From Escherichia coli (GTDB taxonomy: Bacteria; Pseudomonadota; Gammaproteobacteria; Enterobacterales; Enterobacteriaceae): a stretch of DNA of 3,340 nt. The notes under the pieces are model-generated. The model was not told the origin of the DNA. It did not search any database and saw nothing but the letters and a program-made list of their open reading frames with translations. The stretch is taken from assembly GCF_003334815.1 (NCBI RefSeq), contig NZ_QOWO01000083.1. The stretch is one strand, 5' to 3'. Below are positions 258 through 3,340 of this stretch, piece by piece. How positions within the stretch are numbered: position 1 is the stretch's first letter; the number at the start of each line of letters is the position of its first letter. The position numbers and the translations under genes were made by a program.

Positions 258-1793
258 ATGGCTACATCAGTACAGACAGGTAAAGCTAAGCAGCTCACAT
301 TACTTGGATTCTTTGCCATAACGGCATCGATGGTAATGGCTGTTTATGAATACCCTACCTTCGCAACATCGGGCTTTTCATTAGTCTTCTTCCTGCTATT
401 AGGCGGGATTTTATGGTTTATTCCCGTGGGACTTTGTGCTGCGGAAATGGCCACCGTCGACGGCTGGGAAGAAGGTGGTGTCTTCGCCTGGGTATCAAAT
501 ACTCTGGGGCCGAGATGGGGATTTGCAGCGATCTCATTTGGCTATCTGCAAATCGCCATTGGTTTTATTCCGATGCTCTATTTCGTGTTAGGGGCACTCT
601 CCTACATCCTGAAATGGCCAGCGCTGAATGAAGACCCCATTACCAAAACTATTGCAGCACTCATCATTCTTTGGGCGCTGGCATTAACGCAGTTTGGTGG
701 CACGAAATACACGGCGCGAATTGCTAAAGTTGGCTTCTTCGCCGGTATCCTGTTACCTGCATTTATTTTGATCGCATTAGCGGCTATTTATCTGCACTCC
801 GGTGCCCCCGTTGCTATCGAAATGGATTCGAAGACCTTCTTCCCTGACTTCTCTAAAGTGGGCACCCTGGTAGTATTTGTTGCCTTCATTTTGAGTTATA
901 TGGGCGTAGAAGCATCCGCAACCCACGTCAATGAAATGAGCAACCCAGGGCGCGACTATCCGTTGGCTATGTTACTGCTGATGGTGGCGGCAATCTGCTT
1001 AAGCTCTGTTGGTGGTTTGTCTATTGCGATGGTCATTCCGGGTAATGAAATCAACCTCTCCGCAGGGGTAATGCAAACCTTTACCGTTCTGATGTCCCAT
1101 GTGGCACCAGAAATTGAGTGGACGGTTCGCGTGATCTCCGCACTGCTGTTGCTGGGTGTTCTGGCGGAAATCGCCTCCTGGATTGTTGGTCCTTCTCGCG
1201 GGATGTATGTCACAGCGCAGAAAAACCTGCTGCCAGCGGCATTCGCTAAAATGAACAAAAATGGCGTACCGGTAACGCTGGTCATTTCGCAGCTGGTGAT
1301 TACGTCTATCGCGTTGATCATCCTCACCAATACCGGTGGCGGTAACAACATGTCCTTCCTGATCGCACTGGCGCTGACGGTGGTGATTTATCTGTGTGCT
1401 TATTTCATGCTGTTTATTGGCTACATTGTGTTGGTTCTTAAACATCCTGACTTAAAACGCACATTTAATATCCCTGGTGGTAAAGGGGTGAAACTGGTCG
1501 TGGCAATTGTCGGTCTGCTGACTTCAATTATGGCGTTTATTGTTTCCTTCCTGCCGCCGGATAACATCCAGGGTGATTCTACCGATATGTATGTTGAATT
1601 ACTGGTTGTTAGTTTCCTGGTGGTACTTGCCCTGCCCTTTATTCTCTATGCTGTTCATGATCGTAAAGGCAAAGCAAATACCGGCGTCACTCTGGAGCCA
1701 ATCAACAGTCAGAACGCACCAAAAGGTCACTTCTTCCTGCACCCGCGTGCACGTTCACCACACTATATTGTGATGAATGACAAGAAACACTAA
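258..1793 (+). CDS. gadC: Glutamate:gamma-aminobutyrate (GABA) antiporter, APC superfamily, acid-resistance system 2
   Basis: Uninterrupted 512-codon ORF (511 aa plus TAA) with a strong SD. The translation is highly hydrophobic with many predicted transmembrane segments. The N-terminus [22 protein letters not shown] and the His/basic-rich C-terminal tail ending [10 protein letters not shown] match my memory of E. coli GadC (XasA). Position directly after gadB fits the gadBC operon. Confidence 0.96.
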
Positions 1794-1817
1794 CCATGTC
1801 TGAATGGTTATAAGACA

Positions 1818-1846
1818 AGGGAGCGATAATTCATCGCTCCCTTTTT
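1818..1846 (+). terminator. Rho-independent terminator of the gadBC transcript
   Basis: Direct reading: 10-bp GC-rich stem AGGGAGCGAT (1818-1827) / ATCGCTCCCT (1833-1842), 5-nt loop AATTC, then a run of five T (1842-1846). It starts 25 nt after the gadC stop codon. Confidence 0.8.
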
Positions 1847-1862
1847 CGTGCTTGCTGTCGTA

Positions 1863-1891
1863 TTGACTTAACGGGGATAAGTACGAGAATG
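1863..1891 (+). promoter_or_regulatory. Candidate sigma70-type promoter for the downstream lipoprotein gene: -35 TTGACT (1863-1868), about 16-bp spacer, -10-like GAGAAT (1885-1890)
   Basis: Direct reading. The -35 matches consensus at 5 of 6 positions and the -10 at 4 of 6, including the conserved A2 and T6. It lies between the gadC terminator and the 1924 start codon. The -10 is weak, so this is speculative. Confidence 0.25.
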
Positions 1892-1923
1892 AGCGCACAT
1901 CTGTTTACCGGAAACCAGCACAT

Positions 1924-3243
1924 ATGGATATCTGCTCCCGAAACAAGAAATTAACGATTAGAAGACCAGCGATACTAGTTGCACTGGCACTTTTACTGTG
2001 TAGTTGTAAAAGCACGCCTCCAGAGTCCATGGTGACACCACCAGCAGGTTCAAAGCCACCAGCCACGACGCAACAATCGTCACAACCGATGCGTGGCATC
2101 TGGCTGGCCACGGTTTCTCGGCTCGACTGGCCACCGGTTTCCTCGGTTAACATTAGTAACCCCACCAGCCGGGCCCGTGTACAACAACAGGCGATGATCG
2201 ACAAACTGGATCATCTGCAACGTCTCGGCATAAACACGGTCTTTTTCCAGGTCAAGCCGGACGGTACCGCCCTGTGGCCATCGAAAATTTTGCCGTGGTC
2301 CGATCTTATGACCGGTAAGATTGGTGAAAATCCGGGTTACGATCCGCTGCAATTTATGCTCGACGAAGCCCACAAGCGTGGGATGAAAGTACACGCCTGG
2401 TTTAACCCCTATCGCGTATCGGTTAATACGAAGCCCGGTACTATCAGGGAACTGAATAGCACTCTGTCTCAACAACCGGCGAGCGTCTATGTGCAACACC
2501 GCGACTGGATCAGAACGTCTGGCGATCGCTTTGTCCTCGACCCGGGCATCCCTGAGGTTCAGGACTGGATCACATCAATAGTCGCAGAAGTGGTTTCCCG
2601 CTATCCCGTAGATGGCGTGCAGTTTGACGACTATTTCTATACGGAGTCACCGGGTTCACGGCTAAATGATAACGAAACGTACCGTAAATACGGAGGCGCA
2701 TTTGCGTCAAAAGCAGACTGGCGGCGCAACAATACTCAGCAGTTAATTGCAAAGGTATCGCACACCATTAAAAGCATTAAGCCGGGAGTCGAATTTGGTG
2801 TTAGCCCGGCAGGCGTGTGGCGTAACCGATCACACGATCCGCTCGGTTCCGATACCCGAGGCGCGGCAGCCTATGACGAATCCTACGCTGACACCCGTCG
2901 ATGGGTGGAACAAGGATTGCTGGATTACATTGCTCCCCAAATTTACTGGCCGTTCTCACGGAGTGCCGCGCGTTATGACGTGTTGGCAAAATGGTGGGCG
3001 GATGTCGTTAAACCGACCAGGACCCGCCTGTATATCGGTATCGCCTTCTATAAAGTGGGTGAACCTTCAAAGATAGAGCCAGACTGGATGATTAACGGCG
3101 GCGTACCGGAACTGAAAAAGCAGCTCGATCTTAACGATGCTGTGCCCGAAATTAGCGGCACCATCTTGTTCCGTGAGGACTATCTGAATAAACCGCAGAC
3201 TCAACAAGCGGTCAGCTATCTGCAAAGTCGCTGGGGCAGTTAA
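1924..3243 (+). CDS. digH: Outer-membrane lipoprotein with a glycoside-hydrolase-like family 10 (GHL10) domain; divisome-associated glycan hydrolase YddW/DigH
   Basis: Uninterrupted 440-codon ORF (439 aa plus TAA). The N-terminus has a basic n-region (SRNKKLTIRR), a hydrophobic core (PAILVALALLL), and a Cys-containing lipobox-like motif (LLCSC), followed by a Pro/Ser/Thr-rich linker. The rest is a soluble domain rich in aromatic and acidic residues, typical of a TIM-barrel glycosidase fold. Size and position next to gadC match E. coli yddW as I recall it. There is no in-frame start between the upstream stop (1864-1866) and ATG 1924, and none between 1924 and the lipobox, so the start is well constrained even though the SD is weak (GGAA about 10-13 nt upstream). 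Confidence 0.9.
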   Translation: MDICSRNKKLTIRRPAILVALALLLCSCKSTPPESMVTPPAGSKPPATTQQSSQPMRGIWLATVSRLDWPPVSSVNISNPTSRARVQQQAMIDKLDHLQRLGINTVFFQVKPDGTALWPSKILPWSDLMTGKIGENPGYDPLQFMLDEAHKRGMKVHAWFNPYRVSVNTKPGTIRELNSTLSQQPASVYVQHRDWIRTSGDRFVLDPGIPEVQDWITSIVAEVVSRYPVDGVQFDDYFYTESPGSRLNDNETYRKYGGAFASKADWRRNNTQQLIAKVSHTIKSIKPGVEFGVSPAGVWRNRSHDPLGSDTRGAAAYDESYADTRRWVEQGLLDYIAPQIYWPFSRSAARYDVLAKWWADVVKPTRTRLYIGIAFYKVGEPSKIEPDWMINGGVPELKKQLDLNDAVPEISGTILFREDYLNKPQTQQAVSYLQSRWGS

Positions 3244-3276
3244 ACTCCCATTCTTACTTTGTACTGATGAATCCCC

Positions 3277-3300
3277 TAATGATTTTTATCAAAATCATTA
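3277..3300. promoter_or_regulatory. Perfect AT-rich palindrome TAATGATTTT-N4-AAAATCATTA in the intergenic region downstream of digH
   Basis: Direct reading: 3277-3286 is the exact reverse complement of 3291-3300, with spacer TATC. It is too AT-rich and lacks a GC stem and T-run, so it is not a convincing intrinsic terminator; a dimeric regulator-binding site in the next gene's promoter region is more likely. By recalled synteny the next gene would be dosC, whose start is outside the window. Confidence 0.3.
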
Positions 3301-3340
3301 AGTTAAGGTAGATACACATCTTGTCATATGATCAAATGGT

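Follow-up and report, generated by a model that had tools for sequence, protein, structure and literature searches.

The closest described counterparts of the locus reported here are the intrinsic terminators that end Escherichia coli operons, the sigma-70 promoters that combine a strong -35 with a weak -10 element and, for some orthologs of its downstream gene, the AUU start codons of infC and pcnB. The stretch of DNA analysed (hereafter the window, 3340 bases, contig NZ_QOWO01000083.1) carries an E. coli K-12-type locus made up of the 3' end of gadB (to position 102), gadC and digH (also named yddW), and our subject is the spacer of 130 bases between the last two genes (1794-1923). Like the terminators of other E. 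coli operons, this spacer contains a GC-rich stem of 9-11 bp, a loop of 5 nucleotides (nt) and a T run directly after it, located 23-25 nt past the last stop codon of the operon on the same strand; it differs from them by the shortness of the T run (5 T, then CGTG). Like the sigma-70 promoters mentioned above, it also contains TTGACT-16 bp-GAGAAT with A-11 and T-7, without an extended -10, and with an A as transcription start site (TSS) 7 nt downstream. It departs from a plain constitutive sigma-70 promoter in that the off-consensus -12/-10 positions and a block of the promoter spacer are conserved across three Enterobacterales families. We consider it highly probable that the gadC-digH spacer is the boundary of two independent units, the intrinsic terminator of gadBC being followed by a promoter belonging to digH. 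With a mapped TSS, a promoter that travels with digH and a terminator between the two genes, digH would thus constitute its own transcription unit. The two genes and the elements of the digH promoter are the following.

258-1793, plus strand: coding sequence (CDS) of gadC, the glutamate:GABA (gamma-aminobutyric acid) antiporter, with stop codon TAA at 1791-1793 (open reading frame (ORF) list; MG1655 and other-genome annotation)
1924-3243, plus strand: CDS of digH (yddW), 439 amino acids (ORF list, annotation and the L-x-S-C of the orthologs; function from PMC12288456)
1863-1868, plus strand: digH promoter -35, TTGACT, 5/6 consensus positions (scan, ortholog conservation, invariant in Escherichia)
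1875-1884, plus strand: conserved block of the promoter spacer, GGATAAGTAC in E. coli (information profile of the ungapped stack; invariant in 11 Escherichia)
1885-1890, plus strand: digH promoter -10, GAGAAT, 4/6 consensus positions with A-11 and T-7 kept (scan, conservation, 7 nt before the TSS)
1897, plus strand: digH TSS (A) (PMC3415461, supplementary file 2; NC_000913.2 1566874 = NC_000913.3 1568850, minus strand)

The start site of digH has been public since 2012. Kim et al. 2012 (PLoS Genet, PMC3415461) sequenced 5'-triphosphate-enriched RNA by a modified rapid amplification of 5' cDNA ends (5' RACE) from MG1655 grown to mid-log in M9 glucose, and the listed part of their table contains one entry for b1491 yddW, with 30 reads and a 5' untranslated region of 27 nt. 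The upstream sequence given for this entry is CGTGCTTGCTGTCGTATTGACTTAACGGGGATAAGTACGAGAATGAGCGCA, ending in ...GAGAATGAGCGCA, and its last A corresponds to position 1897 of the window (the NC_000913.3 coordinate of MG1655 equals 1,570,747 minus the window coordinate, the genes lying on the minus strand there). A1897 is located 7 nt after GAGAAT, a position that had been predicted from the hexamers before the table entry was found. In the listed part of the same table (PMC3415461), gadB received 6 reads and dosC 2, and the read count of yddW ranked 15th among 60 neighbouring TSS rows (median ~6-7), hence in the top quartile. No TSS was present for the Klebsiella ortholog KPN_01669 among the rows listed in Kim et al. 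2012. A preliminary description of the spacer had proposed TTGACT-N16-GAGAAT as its only promoter-like match and TSS mapping as a check; the published start falls exactly 7 nt downstream of this GAGAAT, and the table entries contain none elsewhere for yddW.

A consensus scan recovered TTGACT-N16-GAGAAT (1863-1890) as the sole promoter-like match of the spacer on either strand. The match alone proves nothing, since the whole window contains fewer such sites than shuffled sequence (2 against 4.2 +/- 2.3), that is, fewer than expected by chance. It is nevertheless a real promoter of digH, as two independent lines of evidence, the mapped TSS and the conservation in orthologs described below, converge on it. 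The idea that the match arose by chance and that digH is expressed from elsewhere, with which the 2 sites against 4.2 in shuffles would be compatible, retains next to no probability and is already refuted by the TSS mapped exactly 7 nt downstream, by the 42 loci that contain the match, where chance would yield 0.77, and by the single yddW TSS among the entries of the table of Kim et al. 2012. A short upstream ORF starting at the ATG at 1889 was discarded as a candidate: it begins before the mapped TSS, and its ATG is missing in many orthologs (GAGAATA).

Typical E. coli promoters match approximately 8 of the 12 consensus positions. With 9/12 matches, a spacer of 16 nt and both A-11 and T-7, the digH promoter is thus not weak on paper. 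We infer that it is of the sigma-70 type from its motif and its mid-log activity. The preliminary description had gathered promoter and ribosome-binding site under weak expression signals, a statement that holds for the Shine-Dalgarno (SD) sequence, as detailed below, and is overstated for the promoter, whose TSS reads are in the top quartile. Its suggestion that the promoter may need an activator or an alternative sigma factor was not supported either: neither has to be invoked to account for a promoter with 9/12 matches that is active during exponential growth, at low sigma-S, and ranks 15th of 60 in reads.

We examined the conservation of this promoter in 80 fetched loci of DigH relatives, with 74-98% identity, from species-representative genomes. 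It was recovered in 42 of them, 37 outside Escherichia, as TTGAC(T/A)-N16-GA(G/A)AAT or with the -10 off at one further position. The raw count at the same score was 43/80, including one likely false hit (L051), and shuffled upstream regions yielded a mean of 0.77 loci (maximum 3). The spacer was exactly 16 nt in all 42 promoter-bearing loci, and the distance to the lipobox codon was near-constant. The -10 was GAGAAT or GAAAAT, with CACAAT or CAAAAT in three loci, and was never the consensus TATAAT. In the ungapped stack of the 42 loci, hardly any information was present upstream of the -35. It reached its maximum over ATTGACTT, took intermediate values in the spacer block, was maximal again over GAGAAT and the next G, and dropped thereafter. 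Outside E. coli, the consensus of the spacer block was cGAATAnTA(c/a), at about -22 to -13. Promoter-bearing genera included Citrobacter, Klebsiella, Raoultella, Leclercia, Cedecea, Buttiauxella, Phytobacter, Erwinia, Pantoea and Rahnella. Eleven Escherichia sequences, cryptic clades included, showed no variation in the two hexamers, in the block GATAAGTAC or in the leader segment CATCTGTTTACCGGAAA.

The genes upstream of digH, which occur in either orientation, belonged to more than 20 unrelated clusters, so that the conservation of the promoter is not a by-product of a shared neighbour. In particular, gadC was found upstream of digH only in the five Escherichia loci of the 80, and the similarity of Escherichia to Citrobacter sets in 3-4 nt before the -35, so that gadBC with its terminator directly abuts a digH promoter older than this neighbourhood. 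Judging from this comparison of loci, the promoter is an ancestral feature of digH that was in place before gadBC arrived upstream.

In the orthologs devoid of the promoter (Enterobacter, Kosakonia, Lelliottia and the C. freundii group), digH is located right behind a gene of ~95 codons encoding a VF530-domain (PF09905) protein, often with a near-zero gap, the stop of this gene nearly abutting the start of digH. Co-transcription of digH with the VF530 gene is probable in these genera, given this arrangement. The VF530 gene was seen before digH in promoter-less loci L018, L021, L027, L032, L033, L037, L046, L060, L067, L072 and L079. In two Citrobacter sp. loci (L007 and L008), the conserved promoter comes after the VF530 gene. 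A search of NCBIfam returned no family for DigH or for the upstream protein of ~95 amino acids.

The other half of the boundary is the predicted terminator of gadBC, which consists of the following parts.

1817-1846, plus strand: predicted gadBC intrinsic terminator (fold energy, stem invariance and T5 tract; presumed function)
1819-1827, plus strand: left arm of the terminator, GGGAGCGAT (sequence)
1828-1832, plus strand: loop of the terminator, AATTC (sequence)
1833-1841, plus strand: right arm of the terminator, ATCGCUCCC (sequence)
1842-1846, plus strand: T tract of the terminator, TTTTT, with CGTG after it (sequence)

The hairpin reads GGGAGCGAT-AATTC-ATCGCTCCC followed by TTTTT (1819-1846), and two extra A-T pairs are possible between A1817-A1818 and T1842-T1843, giving a stem of 9-11 bp. 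Folded alone, it reached -18.4 kcal/mol, and none of 200 shuffles was as stable (z = -6.57), in agreement with the terminator that the preliminary description had placed after gadC. A consensus terminator scan of the window did not list the 1817-1846 hairpin; we read this as a limitation of the scan and not as counter-evidence, since the scan rule, as we understand it, apparently lengthened the stem at the expense of the T run, so that the remaining tail had too few T. In 11 Escherichia sequences, cryptic clades included, the stem was invariant and the loop was variable (AATTC, AAGTC, AGTTA, AAATTA). This pattern suggests, with modest support because these sequences contain no compensatory changes, that the stem is kept by selection while the loop drifts. 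The 35-mer of the terminator was found near-exact in 3783 of 5426 E. coli genomes, 3763 of these at 99% identity or more. The region 1700-2000, which covers the gadC-digH spacer, was 100% identical to K-12-type genomes and matched in 5412/5426 complete E. coli genomes. The K-12 spacer allele taacGggg was present in only 1320/5426 E. coli genomes; among seven other aligned E. coli strains, five had taacCggg and one (BL21) the K-12 base. No Rfam family was found in the gadC-digH spacer.

The claim of the preliminary description that digH is separate from the gadBC transcript is thus supported by the TSS at A1897, by the promoter kept in genera without gadBC and by a stable terminator with an invariant stem. 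Membership of digH in the gadBC operon is at odds with the presence of the terminator, with digH having its own TSS and with a linkage found only in Escherichia. Likewise, among the rows listed in the transcription-unit column of Aquino et al. 2017, gadC appears under 'gadBC' and 'gadC' only.

Downstream of the promoter, the transcript would begin with a short leader.

1897-1923, plus strand: digH leader, 27 nt, unstructured (fold of 1897-1945: -5.6 kcal/mol, z = 0.07)
1910-1913, plus strand: weak SD-like GGAA, 10 nt before the ATG at 1924 (anti-SD duplex -3.5 kcal/mol)

The GGAA had been called a poor SD beforehand, and its spacing of 10 nt from the ATG and its anti-SD duplex of only -3.5 kcal/mol agree with this; the short unstructured leader may partly offset it. 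Leader folds of 19 orthologs gave mostly positive z values and no hairpin consistently hiding the SD. The product has the lipobox L-C-S-C (...ALLLCS|C), with the codon of the lipidated Cys28 at 2005-2007, and L-x-S-C is conserved in nearly all 80 orthologs, as in lipoprotein precursors. DigH has been described as an outer-membrane lipoprotein (PMC10546733).

The sequence of events at the spacer could then be as follows. RNA polymerase that has started at the gadB promoter, which is induced by acid and in stationary phase, would run into the Rho-independent terminator 23-25 nt past the stop codon of gadC, and most gadBC transcripts should end around 1846-1849. After 16 bases, which separate the T tract from the -35, the ancestral sigma-70-type promoter would start digH transcription at A1897. 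The digH mRNA would have a 27-nt unstructured leader with the poor GGAA SD, and its translation would probably be initiated inefficiently. Moderate constitutive transcription in growing cells together with this poor SD would thus give low levels of the DigH glycosidase in the outer membrane. A literature search found no paper on digH transcription.

Several observations weigh against two fully independent units, some of them concerning further control of the digH promoter and others a possible leakage of the gadBC terminator. Regarding the promoter, the conservation of the spacer block and of an off-consensus -10 suggests control beyond recognition by RNA polymerase, and the block at 1875-1884, more conserved than a sigma-70 spacer would require, may be where a regulator binds. 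No match of the block to a known regulator box was established, and a comparison of the region by eye, which is not a test, revealed no fit to the consensus sequences of sigma-E, sigma-32, sigma-28 or sigma-54 or to RcsB or CpxR boxes.

One could thus propose that sigma-S, or a factor binding the block, further controls the digH promoter and that its exponential activity is basal only, which we hold to be a minority possibility. In the 42 loci, the -10 never matches the consensus and the positions from -22 to -13 (cGAATAnTA) are conserved, and E. coli has a C at -13. A C at -13 is a sigma-S determinant; this base is, however, not conserved in the orthologs. The conserved -35, close to consensus, also argues against this proposal, such an element being unusual for sigma-S-selective promoters, as does the detection of the TSS at mid-log in minimal glucose with reads above the local median. 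Expression data point in both directions. In one RNA-seq set, digH falls together with dosP, osmC, uspF, the hya genes and gadBC, all of them stationary-phase (sigma-S-class) genes. Under alcohol stress, the DigH protein increased by more than 7-fold, along with MltA, EmtA and MliC, although this rise of the protein could be post-transcriptional. Finally, genomic SELEX (systematic evolution of ligands by exponential enrichment) placed a peak of the RpoS holoenzyme inside yddW and not in the gadC-yddW spacer (NC_000913.2 1566238, approximately position 2533 of the window; PMC5493296), and RpoH peaks in two spacers, yddV-yddW and gadC-gadB, with none between gadC and yddW (PMC5493296). With a mid-log TSS and an RpoS peak lying off-site, the promoter does not behave as a sigma-S-dependent one, and the co-variation in RNA-seq leaves room for partial dependence.

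The alternative concerning the terminator is that it is leaky, so that the gadB promoter, when acid or stationary phase drives very strong gadBC transcription, supplies a substantial part of the digH mRNA and couples digH to acid stress. The U-tract is indeed short, with five U followed by CGUG, and the hairpin begins only 23-25 nt after the gadC stop codon. In a tR2 reporter, the interference of ribosomes with termination was gone at more than 27 nt, and the gadC spacing is just under this plateau (PMC4824070). Set against these features are the stability of the hairpin and the invariance of its stem. The supplement text of Adams 2021 (3'-end mapping) and of Yan 2018 (SMRT-Cappable-seq), as far as it was available, contained no entry for gadC, digH or yddW. 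A 2026 preprint names a unit 'gadC-yddY-digH', the basis of which is not stated.

As gadBC transcripts are among the most abundant mRNAs of stationary phase, a read-through of a few percent could rival a moderate promoter. A shift of the three genes in the same direction was indeed observed in the RNA-seq set of azidothymidine-treated EC958, with log2 changes of -2.80 for digH, -2.35 for gadC and -1.75 for gadB. The change of digH is nonetheless larger than those of gadC and gadB, which argues against read-through, since a constitutive promoter supplemented by pure read-through should show a smaller change. Many unlinked stationary-phase genes fall as well in this set (dosP, osmC, uspF and the hya genes), and the joint fall looks like a general stationary-phase programme that does not separate read-through from parallel regulation. 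Moreover, the alcohol stress that raises DigH lowers Slp, MdtE and MdtF, which belong to the acid-fitness island, and the linkage of gadBC with digH is confined to Escherichia. We thus regard substantial read-through as improbable and retain the boundary between two independent units.

Other features were observed around the terminator. A second hairpin is predicted at 1843-1889 on the plus strand (-16.6 kcal/mol, z = -3.5); it overlaps the -35 and the -10 and could form in read-through transcripts only. Its right arm was invariant in the 11 Escherichia sequences, and changes in its left arm both improved and broke pairs, with no double compensation. As the right arm is promoter sequence and the left arm lacks compensatory change, we judged this hairpin probably incidental and did not retain it as a functional element. 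Two Escherichia lineages, one of them E. whittamii, have an insert of ~167 bp resembling a repetitive extragenic palindrome or bacterial interspersed mosaic element (REP/BIME-like) in the gadC terminator region (L004 1686-1982 and L005 1812-2105). There, the hairpin is retained, the T run has become TTTAG, the left arm is partly repeated after the insert and the digH promoter is intact. In E. coli GN25 (L082 1795-2505), a tnpA element of the IS200/IS605 insertion sequence (IS) family is inserted directly behind the T run of the terminator, ahead of the -35 of digH, and the promoter is unchanged.

The orthologs of digH differ in the way their translation seems to start. Of the 42 promoter-bearing loci, 27 had a conserved SD followed by an in-frame ATC (ATT in two loci), usually at 28 codons' distance from the lipobox Cys. 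In 24 of them the SD motif was GGAG-N6, and the other three, from Erwinia/Pantoea, had AGGAAG-N3-4. Among the 43 promoter-bearing sequences (the 42 fetched loci and the window), 15 had no in-frame ATG, GTG or TTG between the predicted TSS and the hydrophobic core, and several of these had an in-frame stop just upstream. The combination of no ATG, GTG or TTG with an in-frame ATC or ATT after an SD was seen, for instance, in loci L015, L017, L022, L023, L026, L035, L036, L039, L050, L053 and L057, as well as in L063, L069, L073 and others. The triplet that corresponds to the E. coli ATG varied in the orthologs (CTG, CCG, ACG, TCG, TTG, AGG) and the overlapping GGAG was constant, so that what is conserved at this position is an SD and not a start codon; the CTG found there was ruled out as an ortholog start on the same grounds.

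Several RefSeq proteins begin at these AUC/AUU codons (WP_074388337.1, WP_425338998.1, WP_255459235.1, WP_166865005.1 and WP_199735025.1), which indicates that the annotation pipeline reached the same non-AUG conclusion, although inconsistently, at either the first or the second Ile codon. No experimental or published discussion of a non-AUG start of digH was found in the literature search. We thus predict from the sequences that these orthologs initiate at AUC/AUU. The situation recalls the AUU initiation of infC and pcnB by the presence of an in-frame AUC/AUU at a proper distance from the SD (6 nt, or 3-4 nt in three loci). It differs in that the codon is mostly AUC instead of AUU, in being a prediction and in not applying to the E. 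coli window, which has an ATG, the features of a non-AUG start being found in orthologs only; in addition, no autoregulatory logic of the infC kind is known for digH.

SD strength was anticorrelated with the possession of an ATG. The median anti-SD duplex was -5.9 kcal/mol in the AUC/AUU group (27 loci) against -3.5 kcal/mol in the ATG group (15 sequences, window included), these loci being phylogenetically related and not independent events. Leaders were unstructured in both groups. An AUG with a weak SD was found in Escherichia and in some Citrobacter, Klebsiella and Raoultella; most other promoter carriers had a GGAG SD with AUC/AUU. This pattern would fit selection for a low but non-zero translation of a peptidoglycan glycosidase. 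That low translation initiation of digH is under selection and reached by two interchangeable routes, either a good SD with AUC/AUU or an AUG with a lost SD, is a tentative proposal to which we give slightly less than an even chance.

Two further observations concern the ends of the window. In the gadB-gadC spacer, a 12-bp hairpin (GTCCCGAAACGA/CCGTTTCGGGAC region, 122-149; -20.7 kcal/mol, z = -4.0) is followed by AAUUUCC, without a U-tract. It looks like an RNA-stabilising element or a partial attenuator within the gadBC operon, and not like a terminator. At the other end, homology to MG1655 stops after 3263, 20 nt beyond the stop codon of digH and immediately ahead of the hairpin ACAAGCCGGTG...CACCGGCTTGT of MG1655. 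An IS10 end (CTGATGAATCCCCTAATGATTTT...) closes the window at 3264-3340, the sequence being non-chromosomal from 3264 on, and contains a partial RNA-OUT match on the minus strand (3309-3340). Outward transcription from the pOUT promoter of IS10 would presumably run antisense to digH. The digH-IS10 junction was present in none of the complete E. coli genomes of the collection.

The gadC-digH spacer is an ordinary, textbook-like operon boundary that is already in public data. For E. coli itself it matters little, and the gain is a clean annotation, with the terminator at 1817-1846, the promoter at 1863-1890 and the TSS at A1897. A second gain is the placement of this promoter, by comparison of orthologous loci, as ancestral to digH and older than the gadBC genes now located upstream. 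If, improbably, read-through did take place, cleavage of septal glycans would be linked to acid stress. For the field of septal peptidoglycan hydrolases, digH appears as a gene with conserved signs of limited expression, and the block of its promoter spacer could be the site of a regulator. If low translation initiation is indeed selected, digH would provide a natural example of compensation between start codon and SD and, together with its off-consensus -10, would be a cassette 'weak by design' for a potentially dangerous cell-wall glycosidase.

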